Shown piece by piece: positions 3,082 through 60,525 of a DNA stretch of 64,000 nt. Source of the stretch: an uncultured Thermoplasmatales archaeon (GTDB lineage Archaea; Thermoplasmatota; SW-10-69-26). Below the pieces are notes generated by a model. That model ran no database searches. It was not told where the DNA came from and was given only the letters and a program-made list of their open reading frames with translations. The stretch's first letter is position 1. The number at the start of each line of letters is the position of its first letter. The stretch is from the NCBI GenBank assembly GCA_964396185.1, contig CAYNEI010000009.1, positions 3,057-67,056 on the forward strand. Reading direction: 5' to 3'. The translations under genes and the position numbers were made by a program.

Positions 3082-3792
3082 GTGGTCTCCCAGCTGCTCC
3101 TGGGCGTGCTGAACTTCCTGCCGGGCCTCTTGCTGCTCTACATCGTGCTCGGCGGCTATGAGGCGCACTTCGACGACCGGGCCATGTTCTTCGCCATCAT
3201 GGGGGGCCTGATCCTCGGGATCCTGCTCTGGATCGCTGAGGGCTTCATCATCACCGATGCGGGCATCCTGTTCATCGTGCCGGCGCTCACCCTGGTGGAG
3301 ACCATGGGCAAGACCATGTTCGCTGGCCTCCCGCGCTTCAGGGGCGAGCGCCAGACCGTGCTGCTCACAGGGGCCATGGCCATCGTCTTGGCCCCCATGC
3401 TCTTGATGTTCTACAGCCGGTTCATCCAGAACGCCCCCGTCGACACCTCGCTCATCATCCGCATCCTCTCGGTGGCCGTGGGCTACACGCTGGTCCACTT
3501 CGTGACCGGGATGATCGTCGGCCAGGGCCCAGCCCGTGGGAACTTGTTCGAGGGGTTCCTGCAAGGCACGCTCTGGCTTCTTCCCGTGCACGTGCTGCTG
3601 GGCTTGCTCGCCCTGGTCGAGCTCGATGGTGGGCTCGCTATCGCTTGGATGCAGGGTGATCTCGTCTGGGCCGTGCTCATCGCCGTCTACGGGATCGCGC
3701 TGTTCCTCTGGAAAGGGCCACGGCTGCTCGTGGAGGGGCTAGACCGCAAGGAGCGCAAGGCGTGGTATCGACAGCAACGCGAGCAGGCATGA
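3082..3792 (+). CDS. integral membrane protein (about 7 hydrophobic segments), function unknown
   Basis: 236-aa ORF with successive hydrophobic helices and a basic C-terminal tail (RKERKAWYRQQREQA). GC3-rich. Confidence 0.6.
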   Translation: MVSQLLLGVLNFLPGLLLLYIVLGGYEAHFDDRAMFFAIMGGLILGILLWIAEGFIITDAGILFIVPALTLVETMGKTMFAGLPRFRGERQTVLLTGAMAIVLAPMLLMFYSRFIQNAPVDTSLIIRILSVAVGYTLVHFVTGMIVGQGPARGNLFEGFLQGTLWLLPVHVLLGLLALVELDGGLAIAWMQGDLVWAVLIAVYGIALFLWKGPRLLVEGLDRKERKAWYRQQREQA

Positions 3793-3820
3793 GGCCTCAG
3801 GCCTCGGCGACCGGGTCGGG

Positions 3821-4369
3821 CTACTCCCCGTCCTCGTCCTTCCACGTCGAGACGATCTCGTCCCGGCGGATCTCGAGGGCTTCCTTGGCCATGCGCACGT
3901 CTCTGCGCGCCTGGGCCATGATCTTGTGCTCCTCCTGGTAGGGCTCGGAGTCCGCCAACCACTGCTTGAGACCAAGAAGCGAGGTCTCGACCATGTCGGC
4001 GTGCTCAAGCGAGTCGTCGTCCTTGTCGAGCACCTCCTCTGCCTCGTCCATGAGCTGGGCGCCCACGGAGAGCAGCGCACCAACGTTGGTCTCCTCATCG
4101 TCGGCCTCGAGGGGATCGCCGAAGAACCCAGCGATGGACTCCTCGAGCTTCGTCTTGGCCTCCCGCGCCTCGGCTCGCACGCGCACGAGATCGTCGTCAC
4201 CGTCCAGCATCTCTGAGTCGGCCAGGAACTCGTCGATGGTGGCTAGCTGGTTTTCCCAGATGTAGAGCTGGTCCTCGTCCTTGACCTCACGGTCGAGCGC
4301 ATCCTCAGCGTTGCGGATGTACGTCTCGCCCATATGGACGGCTTCCTTGGGCGACTCGAAGGCGGGCAC
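3821..4369 (-). CDS. acidic hypothetical protein
   Basis: 182-aa ORF, strongly acidic (D/E rich) and predicted helical. GTG start; an ATG alternative lies at 4333. Confidence 0.5.
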   Translation of the reverse strand: MPAFESPKEAVHMGETYIRNAEDALDREVKDEDQLYIWENQLATIDEFLADSEMLDGDDDLVRVRAEAREAKTKLEESIAGFFGDPLEADDEETNVGALLSVGAQLMDEAEEVLDKDDDSLEHADMVETSLLGLKQWLADSEPYQEEHKIMAQARRDVRMAKEALEIRRDEIVSTWKDEDGE

Positions 4370-5553: not shown

Positions 5554-5955
5554 TCACGGGACCTCGTGGATCCGCTCGATGCCCGCCTTGTCGAAGTCGT
5601 CGTCGAAGCTGACGATGGCATCCAAGCCCTCGCGCTCGACGACGAGGAGCGCGTAGGCATCCGAGAGGCTCAAGCTGCCATCGAACCTGACGACGAGTTC
5701 CATGCTCTCGTCCAGATCCTCGGCGGTGGGCATATGCAGGACCATGTCGTCGCGCATGGCCTCGTAGGCGTGGCGGGCAGCCGTACCGCCGCGTCTGGAA
5801 CCCACGTTGGCGACGACCTCGGCCACGGCCAGGGCGTGGACGTGGAACGGCCGGCGGGCGTCGACCTCGGGCTTGAGGGCTTGGACTGCAAGGTGCCAGG
5901 GGTCGCGTGGGTCTGCCAGCGCGATCATGAACGAGGCGTCGATGAAGACCGGCAT
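5554..5955 (-). CDS. vapC: PIN-domain ribonuclease toxin VapC
   Basis: MPVFIDASFMIAL (N-terminal acidic Asp), central E/D residues and C-terminal FDDDF, as in PIN domains. Immediately downstream of an AbrB-type antitoxin gene. Confidence 0.85.
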   Translation of the reverse strand: MPVFIDASFMIALADPRDPWHLAVQALKPEVDARRPFHVHALAVAEVVANVGSRRGGTAARHAYEAMRDDMVLHMPTAEDLDESMELVVRFDGSLSLSDAYALLVVEREGLDAIVSFDDDFDKAGIERIHEVP

Positions 5956-6816: not shown

Positions 6817-9138
6817 TCAGCTACCGCCGTCCTCGCTCGGCTTGCTTCGCCGGCGCGTGCTGATGAGCAGGGCCACCAGGTAACCGGCGACCACGGAGAG
6901 CGCGAAGGGGAGCACCGGGCTGTCCATCAGGGTGAGCAGCACCACCAGGGCCACGATGAAGGTCAGTGCGCCCCACGCGATGCTGGCCAAGAGCTTCGGC
7001 TTCTCCCGCATCTGCACGGTCGCGCGCACCGGGGTGCGCTCGACGCCCACGGTGCGGAAGAGGAGCACCGGGATCCAGGCCCAGAGCAACAGCCCGGCAG
7101 CCAGGGTGAGCGAGAGCGGCAGGCCCGCCTCGGTCCCCAGTCCGATGTCCTCCCCAACGATGGGCAGGGATTGGAGCGCGAACCCGGTGAAGATGCCGAC
7201 CCCGAGCCAGATGGCCAGGATGACGGCGACCTTGAACAGGTCCTTGGTGGTGCGCATACGGGCGAGCACGTCCTCGTCCCAGCCCCGGAACTGGGCCAAC
7301 ACGATGGTCGTGGCCACGCCCGAGAGCAGCGCGATGAAGAACGGGAAGCCGAACAGGTCGTTGCCCACGGCCGAGAGCGCAGCCGCAGAGGCGTACAGGC
7401 CGAGCAGGAAGCCGCCCAGGAAGGCGAAGACGAGGATCACGGTGCGAGCGCGGCGCTTCTCGTCGGCGGCTTCGAGCACATCGTCCCCAAGGGCCAGATC
7501 ACGAGAGAGGGCAGCCACGGCCACCAGCCCCACCACAGCCCCCAGGGCAAACGCCAGGCCCACGTTTTCCAGGAAGGTGCCGATGGCGATGGTCGCGTAG
7601 AGGAAGGCGAGGGTGAACACGGCAGCGATGACCGCCATCTCGGCCCACCACGGGAGCTCGGCCACCGTGGCCCGCATCCCGGTGATCAGGCCCGTGGTAT
7701 GGGCGATGAGGTAGTTCACGCCAGCCGCGGCCAGCACGCTGACCAGGAAGGCGATGCGCACCTCGTCGAGGGCCAGCCCGATGGCCAGGAACGTGACGAT
7801 GAGCGTGGAGAAGAAGACGAGGCCTAGGATCAACGCCTCGCCCAGGGCTCCGTAGGACTCGAACTCCTCACCCAGGCCCTCGCCGAGGTCCAGGGTCCAG
7901 ATGAGCAGGCCGAGCACGAGACCAGCGAGGAGCATGCCGGCCAGGATCGCCAGCTCGACGATCTGGGCGGAGAGCGCGATGCCGAAGTACGCGTAGAGGG
8001 CCAGGAGCAGGAAGGTGGCCAGGAAGATGCCCATGCGGGCGGGGAGGCGTTGCTTGCGCACGATGCCGGGGATGTCCTGGGTGATGCCGAACGGGATCCC
8101 GGCAAGCAGGAAGAGCGCGAGCCCCGCGGGTAGACTGATGACGTAGGCGAGCTCGAAGTTGCTCGTGAGCACGACGATGGCCAGGAAGATCAAGGCCACC
8201 GAGAGGGGGAAGATGGGCAGCACGGCGAGCACCCGGTTGCCCTCGCCCAGGGAGACGAAGCTGGCCCAGAGATCACGCCAGGTGCGCACGGCGAAGGTGA
8301 CCGGGAGGAGCACGATCAGCGCGGCCACCAGTGAGAACGAGTAGCCCACGGTGGCGCTCTCGAGCACGCTGCCGTCTTCGGCGATGGTGCGCAGGCCGGG
8401 GCCGATGATCAACGCGAAGTAGAGCGTGAGCAGGACGAGCAGGATCGTGGAGGCCAGCAGGCGCAGGCCCCAGTGCCACTCAAGGATCTCGGCTTTCGCA
8501 TCCTTCCCCCAGCCCGTGAAGAACGAGGTGACACCGGCGCCCAGGATCAGGGCGGGCAGAAAGATGGCCAACCCGATGATGGCCTCCTCTAGCAGCATGA
8601 GGCCGAGCAGGAACCCGATGAGCCCGCTGGCCAATCCGATGGCCGCGAGGCCGATCAGCCGTGCAGCACCCGTGGAGTCCCGGACCCGTTGTGGGACATC
8701 GGAGAGCAGGCCCGTGAACCACACGATGGCACCGGTGGCAGCCGCCGAGACGAACACGACGGCCAGGATCATGAGCACGAAGACCTCGATCAGAGGGCCG
8801 AAGATGACCACGGAGAGCAGGAAGAGCACCGCGAAGACCGGGATCACGAGCAGAAGCCGAGCCCAGAGGGGCGCGCGCTTGCGTGCGGTGTCCACGCGTT
8901 CGAGCAGGCCGAGCGTGTGGCCGATGGCACCCGTCGCTGCGAGCCCGAGGATCGGACCGGCGATGAGCGCGATGGTGAAGCTGTCCGTCGGGAAGGCCAC
9001 TAGCAGGAAACAGAGGAACGAGAGGATGGGCCAGAGAACGAGCAGGATCCCCGCCGAGGCCCACGTGTTCCCGGCCGCCTTGTCGAGCCAGCCGTCCTCC
9101 TGCTCGGAGCCGGTGGAGGCGGCGGGCTCATCTGCCAT
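6817..9138 (-). CDS. very large polytopic membrane protein (more than 20 hydrophobic segments), function unknown
   Basis: 773-aa ORF that is almost entirely hydrophobic helices separated by short charged loops, with acidic N- and basic C-termini. The opposite-strand ORFs are Arg/Ser/Pro-rich shadows. Confidence 0.75.
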   Translation of the reverse strand: MADEPAASTGSEQEDGWLDKAAGNTWASAGILLVLWPILSFLCFLLVAFPTDSFTIALIAGPILGLAATGAIGHTLGLLERVDTARKRAPLWARLLLVIPVFAVLFLLSVVIFGPLIEVFVLMILAVVFVSAAATGAIVWFTGLLSDVPQRVRDSTGAARLIGLAAIGLASGLIGFLLGLMLLEEAIIGLAIFLPALILGAGVTSFFTGWGKDAKAEILEWHWGLRLLASTILLVLLTLYFALIIGPGLRTIAEDGSVLESATVGYSFSLVAALIVLLPVTFAVRTWRDLWASFVSLGEGNRVLAVLPIFPLSVALIFLAIVVLTSNFELAYVISLPAGLALFLLAGIPFGITQDIPGIVRKQRLPARMGIFLATFLLLALYAYFGIALSAQIVELAILAGMLLAGLVLGLLIWTLDLGEGLGEEFESYGALGEALILGLVFFSTLIVTFLAIGLALDEVRIAFLVSVLAAAGVNYLIAHTTGLITGMRATVAELPWWAEMAVIAAVFTLAFLYATIAIGTFLENVGLAFALGAVVGLVAVAALSRDLALGDDVLEAADEKRRARTVILVFAFLGGFLLGLYASAAALSAVGNDLFGFPFFIALLSGVATTIVLAQFRGWDEDVLARMRTTKDLFKVAVILAIWLGVGIFTGFALQSLPIVGEDIGLGTEAGLPLSLTLAAGLLLWAWIPVLLFRTVGVERTPVRATVQMREKPKLLASIAWGALTFIVALVVLLTLMDSPVLPFALSVVAGYLVALLISTRRRSKPSEDGGS

Positions 9139-13922: not shown

Positions 13923-14843
13923 TTGCCCCTCCCAGCACGCACCACCGGGATCCTTGCCACCATGGGTGCAGCGGTGCTCTGGGGCAGCTCGTTCCCAGCC
14001 AACCAGATCGGCCTCGAGCACATGGGGCCCGGCGTCTTCGTGGCCGCGCGCTTCGCGCTGGCCGCGTTGATCGTGCTACCGTTCGCCTGGCGGCTCATCC
14101 GGGAGACCATGCAGCGCTGGGAACCCTGGGCCCTGGGCGCGGTCAACGCCGTGGCCTTCCTGCTGCAGTACGTCGGCCAGACCACCGCGCCGGCTGGGGC
14201 GGCTGGGCTGCTCGTCAACGCCAACGTCGTCGTCGTGGCGCTCGTGGCCTGGGTGTGGCTGGGCGAGGATCCCACCCGGCGCACCTGGGTGGCCATGGGG
14301 GCCGCTCTCGTGGGCGCATCGCTGATCATCTACGAGCCAGGCCAGGGCGCGATCCAACTCGGCCACCTGCTCGTCTTCCTGGCAGGGGCCACGTGGAGCT
14401 TCTACATCGTCGGCACGCGCGCCAGCTTGCTCGATGGGCACTCGCCCACCTCGCTCGCCCTGGCAACCTTCGTGACCAGCGGCGTGCTGCTCTCCCCCTT
14501 CCTGCTTCTCGAACCCCTGCCCACAGCAGCTGTCCCCGTGGCCATGATCGCCTGGACGGGGATCGCGTGCACCGTGGGCGCCTTCGCCCTCTGGCTGCAT
14601 GGCCTGCGCAGCGTAGGTGCTACCGCCAGCGCGGTGGTGCTCCTGCTGGAGGTCTTCGTGGCCGCTGCCCTGGGGGCCTGGCTGCTCGCCGAGCCCTTCC
14701 CGCCGCGCAAGCTGCTCGGTGGCCTGGCCATCGCGGTCTCGATCCTGGTGCTCTCTGGTCGGGGGGACGACCTTGAACCACAAGGCCACAAGGAGCACAA
14801 GGGGATCGCGGGGGAGGGGTACCACGGGGAAGACGCGGGATGA
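13923..14843 (+). CDS. EamA/DMT-family transporter
   Basis: Ten hydrophobic segments in two EamA-like halves (AAVLWGSSFPANQIGL...; ATWSFYIVGTRA...). TTG start, with an ATG alternative at 13962. The last ~22 codons are encoded by the repeat element at 14775. Confidence 0.8.
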   Translation: MPLPARTTGILATMGAAVLWGSSFPANQIGLEHMGPGVFVAARFALAALIVLPFAWRLIRETMQRWEPWALGAVNAVAFLLQYVGQTTAPAGAAGLLVNANVVVVALVAWVWLGEDPTRRTWVAMGAALVGASLIIYEPGQGAIQLGHLLVFLAGATWSFYIVGTRASLLDGHSPTSLALATFVTSGVLLSPFLLLEPLPTAAVPVAMIAWTGIACTVGAFALWLHGLRSVGATASAVVLLLEVFVAAALGAWLLAEPFPPRKLLGGLAIAVSILVLSGRGDDLEPQGHKEHKGIAGEGYHGEDAG

Positions 14844-14947
14844 GGTAGGCTCGGCCGCGTGTGGCTCAGGGAGGGCGCTCTACAGGCTGGGCCCGTCTCC
14901 CTGGTTCCGTTGTGGGCCGTTGTGCCGTAATGCCGTTGTGGTGAACC
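14775..14947. repeat. periodic-arm palindromic element (CACAAGG / CCGTTGTG type)
   Basis: Left arm GAACCACAAGGCCACAAGGAGCACAAGGGG plus a G/A-rich tract. Right arm CCGTTGTGGGCCGTTGTGCCGTAATGCCGTTGTGGTGAACC. Arms are complementary with periodic 1-nt bulges. Confidence 0.75.
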
Positions 14948-27179: not shown

Positions 27180-28544
27180 TCACTCGACGATGGTGACCAG
27201 GTGGAGGCCTTCCTGGTGGAAGGCGTTCTCGGTCATGCCGTCGAAGTCGATGGTGACCAGGCCGCTGGAGAGCACGCTGGGGTCGTAGTGCTCGTCGCTG
27301 CCGGCGCGCACACCGAAGGCGTTGACCAGGGCGTTGTACTCGTAGGCGGTGTCGTTGCCGAAGCCCACGTGGAGGCTCTCGAACGCGTCGACATCGTAGC
27401 TGTCATGCCACAGGTCCAACAGCGGCGTCTCGAGCTCGATCTCGCTGTCCTCGTGGACCTCGAGGGCGTCGAGCTCGAGGACCTCGGCGTCGTCGAGGAG
27501 GTTCTCGCCGTCGGCGTCGGCGATGGTCAGCGCGCCGTCGACGTGGCCGGCGCGCACGAAGAGGATGTAGGTGTCGGGCTCGAGCTCGAGCGCGATCTCC
27601 TGGGGCTCCACGTGGTTGTGGTACCGGTAGTCCCAGGGCGTGCAATCCTCAAGGCTGTGGCAGTAGTTGCGCGAGTCCTCGAGGGGTGCGCCGAGGTGGA
27701 GGTACTCCACTTGGGTCCCGTTGCTGGCGAAGAGGCTGGCGTCTAGCATGTAGCCCTCGTGGATATCGAAGGTCACGACGGCCCCGTTGGGCGCATGGAA
27801 GCGCAGGGGCACGTAGTCAGCCTCGGTGATGTTCATGGCCTTGAGCTCGGGCTCCTCGGCCTCGATCTCCTCGTCGGCCTCATCGATGTCCTCGGGCAGG
27901 ATGGGCGTGAGCAGGGTGACGTAGACGGCGCCGTCCAGGGCGTCGGCTTGGATGCTGACGTCGAGCACGCCGTCGGCAAGCGCCTCGGCGGCCTCCTCGG
28001 CAGCCGCGGCTTCGACGCCGGAATCGCTGGCGCGGAAGACCGTGCCGGAGTCGCTGGAGCCCACGATGAGCAGGTTCTCAGCCGCACCGTCGATGGCGCC
28101 CGAGACGCCGACCAGGCGCTCTGGGAGGTCGATGGTGACCGTGGTGTCCACGGCGTCGCCGTCTTCCTCGACGAGCTTGATGCGGCGTTCGTCGGTGTCG
28201 AGCTCGGTGACGTCGCCGTCGCCTGTGGCCGAGACCACGGCCTCGCCGGCGAAGAGCGCGACGATGGCGCTGCCGCCGTCGAGGATGAAGTCGTGGGAAT
28301 CGCCGGCACCGATGGAGCGGGCGACCACGAGCTCACCGTCCAGATCGTAGACCAGGGCCTCGGTGGCTTCCTCGGCCTCGATCCGGAACCGGTCGTCGTC
28401 CGCCTCGACGAAGTAGACGCCGGTGGCCACGGCGCCGATGCGGTCGTACTCTGATGCGTTAACAGCCATGGGGGCAAGCGCGCCGATCAGCAGTGCGATG
28501 GCGCCCAACGCGATGTATCTCCTCTGCATGGGGGATCTCTCCAA
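27180..28544 (-). CDS. secreted acidic hypothetical protein
   Basis: Signal peptide RRYIALGAIALLIGALAPMAVNA, then a D/E-rich 430-aa body. An AT-rich box (TTTTATACCC on the minus strand, 28561-28570) lies about 20 nt upstream. Confidence 0.65.
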   Translation of the reverse strand: MERSPMQRRYIALGAIALLIGALAPMAVNASEYDRIGAVATGVYFVEADDDRFRIEAEEATEALVYDLDGELVVARSIGAGDSHDFILDGGSAIVALFAGEAVVSATGDGDVTELDTDERRIKLVEEDGDAVDTTVTIDLPERLVGVSGAIDGAAENLLIVGSSDSGTVFRASDSGVEAAAAEEAAEALADGVLDVSIQADALDGAVYVTLLTPILPEDIDEADEEIEAEEPELKAMNITEADYVPLRFHAPNGAVVTFDIHEGYMLDASLFASNGTQVEYLHLGAPLEDSRNYCHSLEDCTPWDYRYHNHVEPQEIALELEPDTYILFVRAGHVDGALTIADADGENLLDDAEVLELDALEVHEDSEIELETPLLDLWHDSYDVDAFESLHVGFGNDTAYEYNALVNAFGVRAGSDEHYDPSVLSSGLVTIDFDGMTENAFHQEGLHLVTIVE

Positions 28545-28620
28545 GCCACCCGACGGGTGGGGGTATAAAAGCTTGATTGGTCAATCTGTTGAAACGAAGG
28601 GCAGAGTGCCGCGAGACGTT

Positions 28621-28808
28621 CAACACGGAGGCACGGAGACACGGAGCGAACGGAGGAAAGGGGGACGTGGAAGGACCGGAAAGGCGGGATAATCGAGGCG
28701 GTCAAAGAGATGTGGTCCGTCATCCCGCTCACGATGGACAAAATTATAGGATTATAGCAGTTCAGCACGGATCCTTCCGTTCTCCGTTCGCTACGTGCCT
28801 CCGTGTTA
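28621..28808. repeat. periodic-arm palindromic element (CACGGAG / CTCCGTG type), paralogue of 35001-35279
   Basis: AACACGGAGGCACG (28622-28635) pairs perfectly with CGTGCCTCCGTGTT (28794-28807), and AGCGAACGGAG pairs with CTCCGTTCGCT. The first 36 nt match the 35001 copy with 1 mismatch. Confidence 0.85.
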
Positions 28809-28839: not shown

Positions 28840-30201
28840 TCACCGCTCCCCGAAGCGTTCCAGCACCCGGCCGAAGGCTTCGCTCCCCTTCCAGAAGTGC
28901 TCCAGGCGGAAGAACTCGTCCGGGGCGTGGAGACGCTCATCGGTCATGCCGTACCCCATGAGCACCACGGGCCCCAGGCTCTCCAGGGTCGGGATCACCG
29001 GGATCGTGGCCCCCTCCCGGATGTAGAGGGTCTCGTTCCCGAAGGCCTCGGTGAGGCATCCGCCAGCGATCTCGAGCACCGGGTGGTCCGGGGAGGCGTA
29101 CCAGGCCGGCGCTGCTTGGAGCACCTCGCCTTCCAGGCGCACGCCAGTGGGCAGCAAGCCTTCGAGATGATCGAGCACCGCTTGCCCGATGGCGTCGGGG
29201 TTCTGGTCGGGCACGGTTCGCACGCTGAGTTTGACCGTGGCGGAGGCGGGCAGCACGGTCTTGAAGCCGTCGCCAGCGTACCCGCCGGTGAGCCCGTTGA
29301 CCTCCAGGCTCGGCCTGGCCCACAGCTGCTCCTGGGGTGTGTAGCCGGCCTCACCCATGGGCACCTCCACGCCCGTGCCTGCCAGGAAGGCCTCCGCGCT
29401 GAACGGGACGGCATCCATCAAGCTGCGTTGAGCGTCATCGAGCTCGCGCACGTCATCGTAGAACCCGGGAACGGTGACGTGCAGGTCCCCGTCCTTGAGC
29501 CCACCGACGGCGCGTGCGAGGGCTTCTGCGGGGTTCATCACGATCCCGCCGAACTGGCCGGAATGGAGGTCGCGATCCGGCCCGTGGACCGTGGCCTCCA
29601 TGGTGACGATGCCGCGCATGCCGTGCACGATGGACGGGGTCTGGGCATCCCACAGGTGGGTATCCGAGACGATGACCACGTCGCTGGCCAGCGCGTCCCG
29701 GTTCTCCTGGATGTAGCGGGGCAGGCTGTGGCCCCCCACCTCCTCTTCCCCCTCGATGAGCACGCGCAAGTTGACCTCGAGCGTGCCGGCAGCCACGTGG
29801 GCCTCGATGGCGCGCAGGTTGGCGAAGAGCTGGCCCTTGTCGTCGGTGGCCCCGCGAGCCCGGATCCGATCGCCGTCGTAGACCGTGGGTTCGAAGGGTG
29901 GCGTGGTCCAGGCATCCAGGGGATCAGGCGGCTGCACATCGTAGTGGCCGTACAGGCAGACCCAGTCGGCCTCCGGGTCCAGCTCGAGCTCCATGTGGAT
30001 GAGCGGGAGGCCGTCGTCCACGACCTCGAGCCCGCCTTGGAAGCCCAGGGCCTGCAGGCGATCGACCAACCATTCGGCCGCCTTGCGGCAATCTTCCCGG
30101 TGTCCCGGGTCTGTGCTCACGCTCGGGATGCTCAAAAGCTCCTTGAGCGACGCCAGGCCCTCGTCCTGGCTGGCCTCCAACCGGTCGAGCCATGCGGGCA
30201 T
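28840..30201 (-). CDS. M20-family metallopeptidase (dipeptidase/ArgE-DapE-like)
   Basis: LYGHYDVQP, ARGATDDKGQ, IEGEEEVGG, HSGQFGG. 453 aa from the ATG at 30201. The 640-aa ORF upstream part and the 629-aa antisense ORF are rejected. Confidence 0.85.
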   Translation of the reverse strand: MPAWLDRLEASQDEGLASLKELLSIPSVSTDPGHREDCRKAAEWLVDRLQALGFQGGLEVVDDGLPLIHMELELDPEADWVCLYGHYDVQPPDPLDAWTTPPFEPTVYDGDRIRARGATDDKGQLFANLRAIEAHVAAGTLEVNLRVLIEGEEEVGGHSLPRYIQENRDALASDVVIVSDTHLWDAQTPSIVHGMRGIVTMEATVHGPDRDLHSGQFGGIVMNPAEALARAVGGLKDGDLHVTVPGFYDDVRELDDAQRSLMDAVPFSAEAFLAGTGVEVPMGEAGYTPQEQLWARPSLEVNGLTGGYAGDGFKTVLPASATVKLSVRTVPDQNPDAIGQAVLDHLEGLLPTGVRLEGEVLQAAPAWYASPDHPVLEIAGGCLTEAFGNETLYIREGATIPVIPTLESLGPVVLMGYGMTDERLHAPDEFFRLEHFWKGSEAFGRVLERFGER

Positions 30202-30327
30202 GAGATGGCCAATGCACCCTGTGCCTTTGAACTTGAAGCATCGGCCCGCTGCAAGGGATGCTTGTCTCCATCCAGCGTGGGTTTCGCCCTCTACTTGACA
30301 CATGCCCGGCGAGTTCCCAGGGATGAG

Positions 30328-30711
30328 GTGTTCCCGCTGAGCCGCCTGGACCCCCTTGCGCGCATCCTCCAGGAGGTCGTCCAGACCACACGTTCGGACT
30401 ACGCCGCGCTCATGGACGCAGGTGGTGAGGCCGTGGTCTCCATCGGCGAGCCTTCGGTGGATCTGGGCGTGCTGGCGGGCATGGCCGGCGCGATCGACGC
30501 GCTCGCGGTCCGCGACCCAGAGACCGCTCGCCACGGTTGCGCGGTGCTCGCCTCCGAGAACCGTTCCCTGGTCTTCTGCCGCCTCGAACCCGACCACCAC
30601 CTCGTCTTCCTCTACGAGGAGGAGCTGAGCATCGGTGAGCTGCTCAACACCGTGGCCACGGCTTTGGAGGGCGCGCTCGCCCAAGAGTTCAGCCCTGAGC
30701 CTCGCCGGTGA
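30328..30711 (+). CDS. Roadblock/LC7 (MglB-like) domain protein
   Basis: 127 aa from a GTG. The pattern LARILQEVVQTTRSDYAALMDAGGEAVVSIG...GCAVLASENRSLVFCRLEPDHHLVFLYEEE resembles Robl/LC7 alpha-beta-alpha sandwiches. It is the in-frame tail of a long antisense shadow ORF. Confidence 0.5.
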   Translation: MFPLSRLDPLARILQEVVQTTRSDYAALMDAGGEAVVSIGEPSVDLGVLAGMAGAIDALAVRDPETARHGCAVLASENRSLVFCRLEPDHHLVFLYEEELSIGELLNTVATALEGALAQEFSPEPRR

Positions 30712-30713
30712 TT

Positions 30714-31196
30714 TCACAACTCGAGCCGCTCGAGCACGTCCGTGCCAGGATCGTATGTGCACACGCTCGGGGGGCTGGCCCGGTGCACCGCGCCTGGGTT
30801 GACCACGCGCGTCGACCCCACGCGCTCGTCCCGGAACGTATGCGTGTGCCCGTGGACCACGAGATCGAAAGCTCCGCTGTTGATCATCCCCTCCAGCCTG
30901 CGCCCATCGTCCCCATGGATCAAGCCAACGCGCTTGGCGCCCAGCTCAAGCTCGTGGACCCGGGCGTAGCGGATTTCGGCCCCGCTCGCGGTGACCGCTT
31001 CCTGGATGCCCGAGGCGTCGTCCACGTTGCCCTCGGCCAGGTGAACCATCCAGCCCGCCAGCAGGGGGACCAGGCGTCCTGTGGCCAGATCCCCGGCGTG
31101 CAGCAGGTGCTGGACGCCAGCCTCTTGGAGCAGGGAGAGAGCCGCGCGCGTGCGCTCCTCGTTGTCGTGCGTGTCCGAGAGCAGGCCGACGAGCAT
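30714..31196 (-). CDS. MJ0936/YfcE-family metallophosphoesterase
   Basis: LLSDTHDN, HAGD, GNVD, HGHTH motif series, 160 aa. Confidence 0.85.
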   Translation of the reverse strand: MLVGLLSDTHDNEERTRAALSLLQEAGVQHLLHAGDLATGRLVPLLAGWMVHLAEGNVDDASGIQEAVTASGAEIRYARVHELELGAKRVGLIHGDDGRRLEGMINSGAFDLVVHGHTHTFRDERVGSTRVVNPGAVHRASPPSVCTYDPGTDVLERLEL

Positions 31197-33335: not shown

Positions 33336-33476
33336 GATCACCACGCCGAGCAAGCTCACCACACCGGAAAGCTCACCACAAGGGCACAAAGGACACAACG
33401 GGCCAGAAGGGGACGATCGAAGCGGTCCCCATGGTCCTCGGGAGATGTTCGTGTCCGTTGTGACGTTGTGGTGAGG
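33336..33476. repeat. periodic-arm palindromic element (CACAAGG / CCGTTGTG type)
   Basis: CTCACCACAAGGGCACAAAGGACACAACGGG (33372-33402) faces GTTCGTGTCCGTTGTGACGTTGTGGTGAGG (33447-33476). Degenerate extra units lie at 33336-33371. Confidence 0.75.
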
Positions 33477-33988: not shown

Positions 33989-34993
33989 ATGCGTTCGAGC
34001 GCGCTGCTCGCCTGCTGCCTCTTGCTGGCCGCCGGCTGTCTGGCCACCGAGGAGCCCAACAGCCGATCCCCAGGCTCACAGAGCGCGACAGAGCGCTTCG
34101 AGCTCCCGGAGACCCTCTACCTCGACGCAGACACCCGGCTGAGAGGCGATGCGCCCACGGACCAGGAGGCCGAGGGGGTCCCGGTGGGGAGCTTTTACAC
34201 CGCTTGGGCTGAGGGCGCCGAGCAGCCCACGTGGACGGGGCCCGCGCTCTCGAGCCCAGCGAGGGTCACCAACGCGACCCTGACGTTCTACTACACGGCG
34301 GAGACCACGGTGGCGACCACCGGGCCCCAGGACCAGGGCTTCCCCGAGTTCGTGGTCTACTTGGGGACCGAGCAAGCCCCCATGGGCTGGGCCAGCCTCC
34401 AGGGCCCGGACGTTGTCCAGCAAGGCGACCAGGTGGAGATCACCGGAGAGCTGTCGCTGCCAGCCGGTGGCTTGGTCTACAGGACCGGGGATGCACCCGT
34501 GGTCAAGATCGCTCCGGTCCAAGCCCAGGGCGACGAGGGCTCCCGGCTGATCATCCTGGTCGACGGAGCCGAGGCCCCCAGCCGTGTGGACATGGACGTC
34601 GAGCCCGTCACGCTCCCAGGCTGGACGCCCGGCACCCCCATCCAGCACGACGGGACCTTGGCCGGAAGCGCGTATGCGACGGGCCCGCAGGAGGGCACGA
34701 CGGCAGCCTCCTTCCCGGTGGATCTCCGGCCCGGGCACGCGGGCATCATCGTGGACCTTGAGCGCGCCACGGGGGCGGGCATCGCGGACATCGACCTGGA
34801 GCTGATCGGCCCCGACGGGGTGGTGGTCGCCCGGAGCGTCACCCCTGAGGACGACGAAGGCTTGGCCCTCTTCGCGCCGAACGTTGAGGCCATCGGGCAC
34901 GGGACCTGGACCCTGCGCGTGGTCAACTACGGCAACGTGGCGGTCCAGTTCGAGCTGACGGGGAACGTGCTGGACGAGCTGGCCGGCACGTAA
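33989..34993 (+). CDS. lipoprotein with C-terminal pre-peptidase (PPC)-like beta-sandwich
   Basis: Lipobox LLLAAGC. The C-terminal IIVDLERATGAGIADIDLELIGPDG...GTWTLRVVNYG resembles PPC/P-domain modules. Confidence 0.65.
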   Translation: MRSSALLACCLLLAAGCLATEEPNSRSPGSQSATERFELPETLYLDADTRLRGDAPTDQEAEGVPVGSFYTAWAEGAEQPTWTGPALSSPARVTNATLTFYYTAETTVATTGPQDQGFPEFVVYLGTEQAPMGWASLQGPDVVQQGDQVEITGELSLPAGGLVYRTGDAPVVKIAPVQAQGDEGSRLIILVDGAEAPSRVDMDVEPVTLPGWTPGTPIQHDGTLAGSAYATGPQEGTTAASFPVDLRPGHAGIIVDLERATGAGIADIDLELIGPDGVVVARSVTPEDDEGLALFAPNVEAIGHGTWTLRVVNYGNVAVQFELTGNVLDELAGT

Positions 34994-35000
34994 GACCCAT

Positions 35001-35279
35001 CAACACGGAGGCACGGAGACACGGAGGGAACGGAGACAGGAGGAGGGTGTGGAAGGACGGGAAGGGGAGGGAGACTGGAGGAAGACCAAGAGATGAGTGG
35101 GCCGGCGTCGAGCTTCGGATGGACTGAGTTAGAATGAGTATGACAGTTCCGGGGCCCCTATAGATCGCCTCTCTGCCGTCTGCCGCTCCGTTCGATGAAG
35201 GCCATCGTCTTTTGCGCGGACGCGCGCTCCTCTCGAATCTGGCGATTTGGTCTCCGTTCGCTCCGTGTCTCCGCGTTGT
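35001..35279. repeat. periodic-arm palindromic element (CACGGAG / CTCCGTG type), paralogue of 28621-28808
   Basis: GGAGACACGGAGGGAACGGAGAC in the left arm pairs with GTCTCCGTTCGCTCCGTGTCTCC (35250-35272), with 1 mismatch. The interior is also homologous to the 28621 copy, plus an extra ~90 nt. Confidence 0.85.
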
Positions 35280-35291
35280 ATCCCTCACCGC

Positions 35292-36896
<1,605 letters not shown>

Positions 36897-44195: not shown

Positions 44196-45164
44196 ATGCG
44201 GGGAGCATGGCTGCTTGCCCTCCTGCTCACAACCCCGGTCTTGGCCGGTTGCCTAGGTGGAGGGGAGGGCGGAGATGAGGGCGACGAACTGCGTCGGCAA
44301 CGCGCTGAGGTGACCAGCCAACTTGGAGGGATCGAGGGATCCGTCACGGACACCGCGATCCAGCCCATCGAGGGCATCAACGTGACCCTTCAGGAGACCG
44401 GCGACGTGGCGGGGACCGCCGTGGACGGGAGCTTCGCCTTCTCGAAGCTCACGCCCGGCAGCTACACCGTGGTCGTGCAGGGCGATGGGTTCGTGAGTCA
44501 GCAAGCCGAGGCGAGCGTGCAAGCCGGCGATGCAGCCGTCGTGGATTTCATCCTCGAGCCCCTGGCCAGCCAGGAGGCTTACACGCAACAGCTTGAGCTC
44601 GCAGGGTTCTTCGAGTGCGGTGCCGAGGTTGGCTGGAACATCAGCCAGCTCCCGGTGCTCGGCTACTTCTTCTATGGCCGCTCGGTCTGCTCGACCCCGA
44701 ACGGCATCTTGGGCGGCAACGCCACGAACGACAGGTTCGCCCACTTCTTCAGCCTGGATGCCCCCATCGAGACCGTCGTCTACGAGATGGTCTGGGACCC
44801 GACCAACCGGATGAGCGAGTGGATGACCACGCGCATGGAGATCGAGGGCTTCGCCAACGACGGCATCGGCACGATCTTCCGCACCCAGGGCCCCAGTCCC
44901 ATCCACGTCCGCATGGACCGCCCCGTCTGGGAGGGGCTCCAGGAGAACTACACCGCCGAGTGCGAGGAGGGCGAGGACGCGTACTGCGGCTACAGCTTCT
45001 TCGACGGAGGCTGGGATCTCCAGACCCGCGTCTTCCCGGCCTGGCAGTGCGCCGATGAGCGCGGCGGTGGCTGCGTGGTCGTGCAACAGGAGTTCACGCA
45101 CTTCGTGAGCGCCTTCTACAACGCGCCAGCCCCGGACGGGTTCGCCGTGGCCAACGGCGGCTGA
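44196..45164 (+). CDS. lipoprotein with carboxypeptidase-regulatory-like domain (paralogue A)
   Basis: Lipobox TPVLAGC. GSVTDTAIQPIEGINVTL...DGSFAFSKLTPGSYTVVV is CarboxypepD_reg-like. Colinear similarity to the 45354 product. Confidence 0.75.
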   Translation: MRGAWLLALLLTTPVLAGCLGGGEGGDEGDELRRQRAEVTSQLGGIEGSVTDTAIQPIEGINVTLQETGDVAGTAVDGSFAFSKLTPGSYTVVVQGDGFVSQQAEASVQAGDAAVVDFILEPLASQEAYTQQLELAGFFECGAEVGWNISQLPVLGYFFYGRSVCSTPNGILGGNATNDRFAHFFSLDAPIETVVYEMVWDPTNRMSEWMTTRMEIEGFANDGIGTIFRTQGPSPIHVRMDRPVWEGLQENYTAECEEGEDAYCGYSFFDGGWDLQTRVFPAWQCADERGGGCVVVQQEFTHFVSAFYNAPAPDGFAVANGG

Positions 45165-45171
45165 TCTGCGG

Positions 45172-45278
45172 GCTCACCACAACGCCACAACGGGCACAAG
45201 GACCCCGGACGGGCGGGAACCCTCCCCCTGTTCCCGGTCCCATCGTGAGCCGTTGTGCCCTTCGTGCCGTTGTCGTCG
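45172..45278. repeat. periodic-arm palindromic element (CACAACGG type), imperfect
   Basis: CTCACCACAACGCCACAACGGGCACAAGGACC, central hairpin GGGAAC-cctccccct-GTTCCC, then GTGAGCCGTTGTGCCCTTCGTGCCGTTGTCGTCG. Confidence 0.65.
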
Positions 45279-45353: not shown

Positions 45354-46328
45354 ATGCGTCCTTGGGTCCTAGCCATCGTGCTCCTGCTCCCGGCCTTCGT
45401 CGGTTGCCTTGGAGGGGACGAAGACTCGAACGAGGACGTGGTCCGACAGCGAGCCGAGGTCACCGGGGAGCTCGGAGGCATCGAAGGCGTGGTCACCGAC
45501 CCCGCCATCCAACCGATCGAGGGCGCCACGGTGCTCCTGGTCGAGACGAACGAAACGGTCGAGACCGCCCAGGATGGCAGCTATGCGTTCTCACGCGTCG
45601 AGCCTGGCACGTACACGATCCAGGTGCGCGCCGAAGGGTTCGTCCCTGACGAGCAGACCGTCCAGGTCCGCACCGGGCGCGCAGCCGTGGTGGACTTCAT
45701 CATCAGCCACGGAGCCATCCAGGAAGCCTACACCCAAGAGCTCGAGATGGCCGGCTTCGTCGAGTGCGGGATCGGCTGGCGCCAGGACCTCGCCGACATG
45801 CCCACCGTGCTGCTCGAAGACAGCGCGTTCGCAGCCTGCGCGGTCCCGAACCTCCAGCTCGGCGGGAACGCCACCAACGACCGGTTCCTGCACACCTTCG
45901 AGCTCGAGGCCCCCATCGCCACCGTGGTCTACGAGCTGGATTGGCCCAGCGGTGGACCGGCCGTGGCAGACCCGGCGCTGCGTACGATCATGGAGATCGA
46001 CGGCTTCATCAACCAGAACGGATCGCGCCTCATGGACACTCGTGGTGGCAGCCCCATCGTGGTCCGCATGGACGAACCTGTCTGGGAGCAGATGGACCAG
46101 AATTTCACCGACCGCTGCGAGGGTCTCAACGGTTCCGAGGCCAACGACGCGTGGTGCGGGTTCAACTTCTGGGACAACGGCTGGCCCCTCGTGCTTCGCG
46201 TGTTCGCCACCGGTGATTGCGCGGACACGCCCGTTGCGGCCTGCTTGGTTTTCCAGCAGGAGTTCACCCACTACGTGAGCGCTTTCTACAACGAGCCAGC
46301 GCCCAGCGGGTACCAGATCACAGGCTGA
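45354..46328 (+). CDS. lipoprotein with carboxypeptidase-regulatory-like domain (paralogue B)
   Basis: Lipobox LPAFVGC. RQRAEVTGELGGIEGVVTDPAIQPIEGATV... and the C-terminal QQEFTHYVSAFYNEPAPSGY mirror paralogue A. Confidence 0.75.
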   Translation: MRPWVLAIVLLLPAFVGCLGGDEDSNEDVVRQRAEVTGELGGIEGVVTDPAIQPIEGATVLLVETNETVETAQDGSYAFSRVEPGTYTIQVRAEGFVPDEQTVQVRTGRAAVVDFIISHGAIQEAYTQELEMAGFVECGIGWRQDLADMPTVLLEDSAFAACAVPNLQLGGNATNDRFLHTFELEAPIATVVYELDWPSGGPAVADPALRTIMEIDGFINQNGSRLMDTRGGSPIVVRMDEPVWEQMDQNFTDRCEGLNGSEANDAWCGFNFWDNGWPLVLRVFATGDCADTPVAACLVFQQEFTHYVSAFYNEPAPSGYQITG

Positions 46329-58979: not shown

Positions 58980-59028
58980 GGATGCCAAGAGATGGGCGGG
59001 GTAGAAGGGGTTTGCGCTGGCCAACCAA

Positions 59029-59416
59029 CCTAGATCACGAAGGGCACGAAGGGGTCACCAAGGACACGAAGGAGGAAGAGGGGGAGGAGCGGGAAGAGCG
59101 GGAAGAGGTGGAAGAGGGACATGACGGATGATCCAGGGCCTTCCCGTGCTGGCCAGCCAACCTAGATCATGAAGTGCACCAAGTGGTCACCAAGGACACG
59201 AAGGAGGAAGAGAGGGAGGAGCGGGAAGAGAGAGGGAAGAGGTGGAAGAGGGAGACGACGGGCGGTCGAGTGCCCGCCCGTTGTTCCTCTCGCCCCTGGT
59301 GCCCTTCGAGCTTCTTCGTGTCCTTCGTGATCCAGGTCCTGGGCCTTCACCCACCCACCCGTGTTCCTGCTATCCTTGGTGCCCTTCGAGCTTCTTCGTG
59401 TCCTTCGTGATCTAGG
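59029..59416. repeat. compound periodic-arm palindromic element (CACGAAGG / CCTTCGTG type): two left arms, two right arms
   Basis: Left arms start CCTAGATCA[C/T]GAAG at 59029 and 59161. Right arms GGTGCCCTTCGAGCTTCTTCGTGTCCTTCGTGATC at 59298 and 59378 are identical over 35 nt. Termini GATCACGAAGG and CCTTCGTGATC are perfect inverted repeats. Confidence 0.88.
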
Positions 59417-59461
59417 TCGTCGGTCGGAAGGGCTTAACCGACCAGCCTCTATCTCGACGCG

Positions 59462-60355: not shown

Positions 60356-60366
60356 CCAACAGGCGG

Positions 60367-60525
60367 GAACCACAAAGTCACAACGGACACAACGACCACG
60401 ACGTGAGATGAGTCGGTCCATCATGGAGGTGCCCAGCAGCCCGTGGATCCACCAACATGGCCGGGTCGTGGCAGGTCGTACTGGGTCGTGGTGGGTCGTT
60501 GTGCCCCTTGTGCCGTTGTGGTTGG
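60367..60525. repeat. periodic-arm palindromic element (CACAACGG / CCGTTGTG type)
   Basis: AACCACAAAGTCACAACGGACACAACG (left) faces CGTTGTGCCCCTTGTGCCGTTGTGGTT (right), about 27-nt arms with a few mismatches. Extra GTCGTGG units on the right. Confidence 0.78.

Follow-up and report, generated by a model that had tools for sequence, protein, structure and literature searches.

What kind of element fills the short gap between two convergent genes at positions 35001 to 35278 of the 64-kb window (the whole stretch of DNA that was analysed)? The locus is a long inverted repeat of about 280 bases whose arms are composed of 3-4 tandem octamers (CACGGAGN). It begins 7 nt after the TAA (34991-34993) of an upstream 334-aa gene (33989-34993, + strand) and ends 13 nt before the stop codon (35292-35294) of a convergent methylmalonyl-CoA mutase gene (35292-36896, - strand). 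The left (5') arm (35001-35036) is purine-rich with a period of 8, and reads CAA followed by CACGGAGG (35004-35011), CACGGAGA (35012-35019), CACGGAGG (35020-35027), and GAACGGAGA (35028-35036). The right (3') arm (35250-35278), GTCTCCGTTC GCTCCGTG TCTCCGCG TTG, mirrors the left arm but is one unit shorter. Inverted-repeat detection pairs 35014-35037 with 35250-35273, giving 24 nt that are 96% complementary and 212 nt apart. The motif is well above chance, since CACGGAGNCACGGAG with up to 2 mismatches occurs 8 times in the window, while shuffles give 1.68 and 0 of 100 shuffles reach 8. Predicted folding energies are -129.4 kcal/mol for + strand RNA (z -2.3), -111.6 for - strand RNA (z -2.2), and -64.3 for DNA (z -3.0), and in each fold the periodic arms form the closing stem.

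The initial annotation described this element as a second, longer paralogue of a periodic-arm palindrome at 28621, with the difference in length arising by internal insertion or deletion. Each of its descriptive claims holds, and the alignments support this interpretation. Both copies begin CAACACGGAGGCACGGAGACACGGAG[G/C]GAACGGAG, at 35001 (copy 2) and at 28621 (copy 1), and differ at one base in 36. Copy 1 (28621-28808) pairs 28632-28655 with 28782-28805 (24 nt, 92%), and lies 32 nt downstream of the stop of an M20 peptidase gene (28840-30762, - strand) and upstream of a TATA-like box (28564-28571) of the next gene. With the arms excluded, a local alignment of the interiors scores 48 against 16.8 +/- 2.5 for dinucleotide shuffles (z = 12.6), corresponding to about 69% identity over about 110 nt. 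The shared interior (35037-35149 in copy 2, G/A-rich in its first half, aligned to 28658-28763) includes the motifs listed in the initial annotation. Thus, the similarity is not confined to the arms, and the copies are true paralogues. Copy 2 then carries a block of about 100 nt (35150-35249) where copy 1 has about 18 nt, and the right arm of copy 1 aligns to the terminal right arm of copy 2. The extra block has no other copy in the window or in any fetched locus. It does contain a small hairpin (35193-35207) followed by TCTTTT on the + strand.

These features bear on two other explanations. A discrete small RNA gene of about 280 nt with its own promoter would be consistent with the stable predicted fold on both strands and with the partly conserved interior. 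However, the only Rfam match in the window is one tRNA, there is no match up to E = 10 in 34900-35400, no promoter-like site was seen, and the palindromic design gives no defined strand. In addition, loop content is not conserved across the wider family described below, making this the least likely of the alternatives. An intrinsic terminator is also not indicated, since the loop is 212 nt and no T run follows the right arm; the only terminator-like site is the small internal hairpin (35193-35213).

The element is not a local oddity. Five more elements with the same grammar but other units are present in the window, and all are intergenic. An element at 14773-14945, with unit CACAAGG x3, lies between convergent genes, and the upstream ORF runs into its left arm. 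One at 33371-33475, with units CACAAGG/CACAAAGG and arms of 25 nt that are 88% complementary, sits in a divergent intergenic region. One at 45172-45276, with units CACAACG/CACAAGG, lies between two same-strand paralogous genes, 8 nt after a stop codon. A compound element at 59028-59417, with unit CACGAAGG, has two left arms (59028, 59160) and two right arms (59314, 59394). Finally, an element at 60365-60523, with units CACAAAG/CACAACG and arms of 30 nt that are 87% complementary, lies 10 nt after the stop of an arginase-family gene, between convergent genes.

Beyond the window, the exact 23-mer arm occurs in more than 119 genome stretches from Planctomycetota, Acidobacteriota, Nitrospirota, Verrucomicrobiota, Chloroflexota, Spirochaetota, Alpha- and Deltaproteobacteria, Lentisphaeria, Gemmatimonas, and others. 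With the two spacer bases left free (CACGGAGNCACGGAGNCACGGAG), the motif is also found in 44 IMG/VR stretches. A BLAST search of plasmids found only long octamer microsatellites in Burkholderia. The flanks of the 23-mer are conserved (aaaaTTCAC-[23-mer]-AAaa). The window has TCAA-CACGGAG where the consensus is TTCAC-CACGGAG, but AAC/AAA variants occur in several bacterial loci. About 62 of 119 arms have a mirror arm downstream within 450 nt (distance 6 or less of 23) and none has one upstream, indicating that on either strand the element reads purine arm first. Loops range from 6 to 420 nt, and interiors are not conserved between genomes. Of 51 complete hairpins away from contig ends, 30 lie between same-strand genes, 14 between convergent genes, and 7 between divergent genes, usually starting 6-20 nt after a stop codon.

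The host of the window is probably archaeal. The window encodes a class I lysyl-tRNA synthetase of the archaeal type, an archaeal-type threonyl-tRNA synthetase, Trm1, and an AlaX-M-like editing protein, and the TATA-like box next to copy 1 lies about 35 nt before the start codon. In addition, a distant homologue of the flanking protein is annotated Thermoplasmatota. A further possibility is that the arms are a protein-binding array, such as a sponge for a GGA-binding regulator like CsrA or phased sites for a multimeric DNA-binding protein that regulates the neighbouring genes. The units do contain GGA/GGAG phased at 8 nt, positions C1, C3, A6, and G7 are invariant across unit variants, and acidobacterial loci show same-strand arrays of modules without mirror arms. 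However, the GGA motifs are sequestered in the stem, other units in the same window (CACAACG) lack GGA, there is no consistent position relative to promoters, and CsrA appears to be unknown in archaea. A CsrA-type sponge was therefore rejected, and a binding array in general is unlikely.

Clustering of the ORFs around the arms revealed one family that recurs directly at the hairpins: Pfam PF13366 PDDEXK_3, which is NCBIfam TIGR04256 "GxxExxY protein". A profile search of all of the arm-anchored loci found 8 genes or gene fragments, every one inside or directly beside a CACGGAG hairpin, including a decayed remnant in a 194-nt loop. As an unbiased reverse test, 80 GxxExxY loci were fetched from metagenomes without reference to any DNA motif. 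Of the 77 with enough flank, 61 have at least two C[A/G]CNNAG units upstream and at least two mirrored units downstream, compared with 6 of 77 in the wrong-orientation control. The period is 8 or 9, and three units per arm is the mode. Cassettes span 421-648 nt, the stop codon lies a median of 9.5 nt before the first mirrored unit, and in many the start codon follows the last unit by 0-28 nt, so that the preceding unit offers a GGAG/AGAG Shine-Dalgarno. Arms of the copy 2 type (CACGGAG x3, purine arm 5') flank 16 of the 77 sampled genes and 7 genes in the arm-anchored loci. A search of IMG/VR for GxxExxY gave only two distant homologues without arms and was uninformative.

The GxxExxY protein keeps a D...ExK motif and is confidently modeled by AlphaFold (pLDDT 94) as a minimal PD-(D/E)XK domain. 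The nearest solved structures to the model are Cas4 SSO0001, lambda exonuclease, and LHK-Exo (E about 2e-3, TM about 0.5), while no solved structure matches by sequence. The family is huge, with 7989 clusters at E of 1e-10 or better among 8000 candidates, and it is listed as of unknown function, with multiple transfers and mixed bacterial and archaeal clades (PMC3424549). Within the unit, positions 1, 3, 6, and 7 are constant, while positions 2, 4, and 5 define "flavours". Flavours do not follow nuclease phylogeny (permutation p = 0.75), so sequence-specific recognition of the arms by the nuclease is unproven.

Evidence of insertion comes from a junction between genes for an HdrA-like polyferredoxin and FlpD. 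In one locus (L254), the left arm (TTAGCCACAGAGCCACTGAGACACTGAG) abuts the ATG of GxxExxY, the upstream ORF now ends inside the arm, and the right arm is followed by the SD and start codon of flpD. In an orthologue at 78% protein identity (L264), the same slot holds GxxExxY plus arms. In another at 76% identity (L265), the slot is empty, and the hdrA-like stop overlaps the flpD ATG. In a fourth at 83% identity, known from protein only, the slot holds a 105-aa 23S_rRNA_IVP gene. L265 also shows six GTGGTCGR octamers immediately before another IVP gene, and a further locus (L064) has an IVP gene flanked by inverted arms made of short tandem units. The cassettes are therefore insertions, with arms and cargo arriving as a unit at sites that had no hairpin, and at least two unrelated small genes use this container. 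For copy 2 itself, insertion is inferred; relatives of its flanking gene at 50-60% identity have different neighbours or are too diverged for an empty-site comparison.

These comparisons bear on the main alternative, which is that the element is a host-serving 3'-end RNA hairpin (terminator, insulator, or mRNA stabiliser, like REP/BIME) that evolved in place with incidental periodic arms, and that nuclease genes merely insert preferentially into such loops. Consistent with this idea, the elements sit just after stop codons and between convergent genes, most hairpins have short loops unrelated to any ORF, copy 2 contains a small hairpin plus T run, and in a few cases the palindrome continues beyond the periodic arms into unique sequence, as if a module sat inside an older hairpin. 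However, the empty site at L265 has no hairpin at all, an identical 23-mer with conserved flanks across phyla and domains is not expected from local evolution, no U tract follows the arms in the window, and two of the seven window elements lie in divergent, 5' intergenic regions. The mismatches in the arms also give no support for selection on the sense transcript. Although G:T outnumbers C:A (59 against 10), this reflects conservation of the CAC part of the unit, and when oriented by flanking genes, wobble-compatible mismatches are fewer on the sense strand (13 against 26). This alternative thus remains possible but unlikely.

A second alternative is that the element is a by-product of mutation, in which octamer slippage makes tandem arrays and template switching copies them into inverted repeats, without function or mobility. 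Arms do differ by whole units, Burkholderia carries long (CACGGAGG)n arrays, units within an element share variable positions three times more often than between elements (0.43-0.46 against 0.15), and the same loci contain many other hairpins whose arms are tandem 7-9-nt units of unrelated sequence. Yet slippage does not explain the conserved TTCAC...AA flanks, the fixed purine-arm-first orientation, the near-exclusive association with one gene family, or the 110-nt interior homology between two copies 6 kb apart. As a complete explanation, it is improbable.

The closest known design is that of the intervening sequences (IVS) of bacterial 23S rRNA genes (Salmonella, Leptospira, Coxiella), in which terminal inverted repeats form a stem of about 24-28 bp that closes a loop of about 100-450 nt. 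The IVS of Coxiella burnetii is a 428-nt selfish element with a 28-bp terminal stem, and its 5' part has an AG-rich SD and three tandem heptamers (GACAGAT, two or three copies depending on the strain) just before an S23p/IVP ORF. RNase III excises it by cutting in the stem, at the start of the first repeat (PMC4990558). ORF decay and ORF-less forms occur, and IVS are sporadically distributed and thought to be horizontally transferred (PMC4990558, PMC11270868). The window element differs in that it lies between protein-coding genes rather than in helix 25 or helix 45 of a 23S rRNA gene, its unit is an octamer, the usual cargo of its relatives is a PD-(D/E)XK nuclease rather than the four-helix IVP protein, and its host is probably an archaeon. 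It is not an IVS in the strict sense, because it is not in an rRNA gene.

REP/REPIN elements and their RAYT transposases are likewise short extragenic palindromes in many copies, mostly after genes, in which hairpin doublets without a gene far outnumber the copies that flank the enzyme gene; a RAYT flanked by REPs turned up among the loci as a positive control. Here, however, there is no GTAG/CGTC tag, the arms are tandem octamers, the associated protein is not a Y1 HUH transposase, and the gene occurs in very many versions. MITEs are also non-coding, intergenic, and about 100-300 nt, with terminal inverted repeats and interiors that differ through indels. However, no known transposase is linked, palindromy sometimes continues beyond the arms, and no consistent direct repeats flank 45 bacterial elements, so no target-site duplication was detected. 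Copy 2 is flanked by CCC on both sides and copy 1 by nothing comparable.

Together, this work suggests, with a probability of roughly 0.6, that copy 2 is an ORF-less, MITE/REPIN-like member of a widespread family of small insertion cassettes built like the IVS. A cassette is a hairpin whose 5' arm is 3-5 tandem purine-rich units of 8-9 nt, with consensus (TT)CAC-C[A/G]CN[A/G]AG-N, whose 3' arm is its mirror image, and whose loop carries either one small gene or none. In bacteria the gene is mostly a GxxExxY/PDDEXK_3 nuclease and sometimes a 23S_rRNA_IVP protein. The link between copy 2 and this cargo rests on shared arms with bacterial elements. No GxxExxY or IVP gene lies in the window, a profile search of all six frames of the copy 2 interior with filters off gave a best E of 3.4, no ORF remnant was detected in the other window elements, and only 5 of 58 complete CACGGAG hairpins hold the gene or a remnant. 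Moreover, every cargo-bearing example examined is bacterial or of unknown origin. No description of the arms or of a GxxExxY cassette was found in the searchable literature, either by sequence or by topic, which is not proof of novelty.

By analogy with IVS, it is inferred that read-through transcripts from either flanking gene fold the arms into a dsRNA stem of about 24-30 bp that loops the insert out of the host transcript. In bacteria RNase III would cut this stem, making the insertion tolerable and giving the neighbouring mRNAs defined ends; most archaea, however, probably lack RNase III. The purine arm would supply an SD for cargo in either orientation, which would explain the fixed polarity. 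Gain or loss of units by slippage would explain why copy 2 has four units on the left and three on the right. The encoded nuclease is the obvious candidate for the enzyme that moves the cassettes. A more tentative idea is that periodic-arm hairpins are a previously unrecognised, cross-domain class of mobile element, moved by the GxxExxY nuclease or by a host factor that reads the CNCNNAG phasing, with ORF-less copies spreading in trans as REPINs do with RAYTs. The 23S rRNA IVS would then be the rRNA-resident members of this class, which would explain their long-unknown origin.

If the main reading is correct, it links three things so far treated apart: anonymous extragenic palindromes in many environmental phyla, the very large but uncharacterised GxxExxY/PDDEXK_3 family, and the 23S rRNA IVS, whose origin and mobility have apparently been open since about 1990 (PMC4990558). 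It also provides a concrete, testable substrate for the nuclease, namely hairpins or cruciforms with CNCNNAG octamer arms. It explains why short-read assemblies break at these sites, as do contigs carrying the 334-aa gene, which break inside the left arm of copy 2, and why gene callers extend ORFs into the arms. Finally, it extends the design to an apparently archaeal genome. For the window itself, the element is most likely a neutral insertion that shapes the 3' ends of two convergent transcripts.

The element at 59028-59417 in the window is compound. Its two near-identical left halves (59016-59098 and 59148-59230, 93% identity) and two right arms (59314-59337 and 59394-59417) look like a tandem or nested duplication of a CACGAAGG-type hairpin, and a long GA-rich tract follows each left arm. 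At 44196-45164 and 45354-46328, two adjacent same-strand genes are paralogues, with about 70% DNA identity over several blocks. Here a periodic-arm element (45172-45276) sits exactly between them.

The arms also affect the apparent ends of neighboring genes. The mechanical ORF of an EamA-like transporter (13923-14843) runs about 70 nt into the left arm of the 14773 element before reaching a stop, and the same happens to the hdrA-like gene in L254, one of the fetched loci. Gene callers will therefore add arm-encoded tails, with peptides such as HGGTE or RVSVPP, to neighboring proteins. Assembly is affected as well. Both of the short-read contigs that carry the 334-aa gene (Logan contigs L120 and L121, from SRR12687320 and SRR12687321) end 36 nt after its stop codon, inside the left arm of copy 2, the longer of the two paralogous elements; the element breaks de Bruijn assemblies. 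Copy 1, the shorter paralogue, lies just upstream of a TATA-box-like motif (28564-28571, - strand CTTTTATA), which is itself located about 35 nt upstream of the ATG (28527-28529) of the gene at 27180-28529. This arrangement fits an archaeal promoter with a very short leader.

In two distant relatives of the window organism (loci L124, 3820-4010, and L126, 3520-3600), a tRNA-Ser(GGA) is present downstream of the homologous gene. After it come repeated simple hairpins of the form CCACGAACGCC...GGCGTTCGTG, a non-periodic palindrome family that starts with CACGAA like the window's 59028 element. Repetition within a single locus is also seen in L110, another fetched locus, which contains three identical copies of a 124-nt hairpin (4246-4369, 5730-5853, and 7019-7142; unit CACGGAGT, 9-10-nt period) spaced about 1.3-1.5 kb apart, suggesting a recent local duplication or a repeated gene-plus-hairpin unit.

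Repeat units also occur without mirror arms. Acidobacteria-type loci (L088, 2630-2930, and also L094, L102, L108, and L040) show arrays of up to six different tri-repeat modules on one strand (ACCACGGAG.., ACCGCGGAT.., GCCACAGAT.., ACCCCTGAT..), in which A/G-rich spacers separate the modules and no mirror arms are nearby. The hairpin model does not explain these arrays. In addition, a Burkholderia stagnalis replicon (NZ_CP156686.1; locus L171, 1300-1540) carries a long head-to-tail octamer microsatellite composed of (GCACGGAG)n, then (ACGCGGAG)n, (ACACGCAG)n, and (ACACGGAG)n. The same octamer occurs here as a pure tandem array, with no inverted partner seen.

The screen for palindromes flanking genes also picked up an IS200-like Y1 transposase (RAYT) flanked by REP-type hairpins (AGCCCAGGGCGGCAGCCCTGGG) at 3694-4201 of locus L060, which makes it a useful positive control for the method. 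Finally, hairpins or arms built from GTGGTC/CAGTGG-type octamers are present in four of the fetched loci: L265 (3790-3858), L080 (1056-1324), L106 (6963-7049), and L011 (1636-1788). In L265, such an arm directly precedes a 23S_rRNA_IVP gene. Different arm types may go with different cargo.
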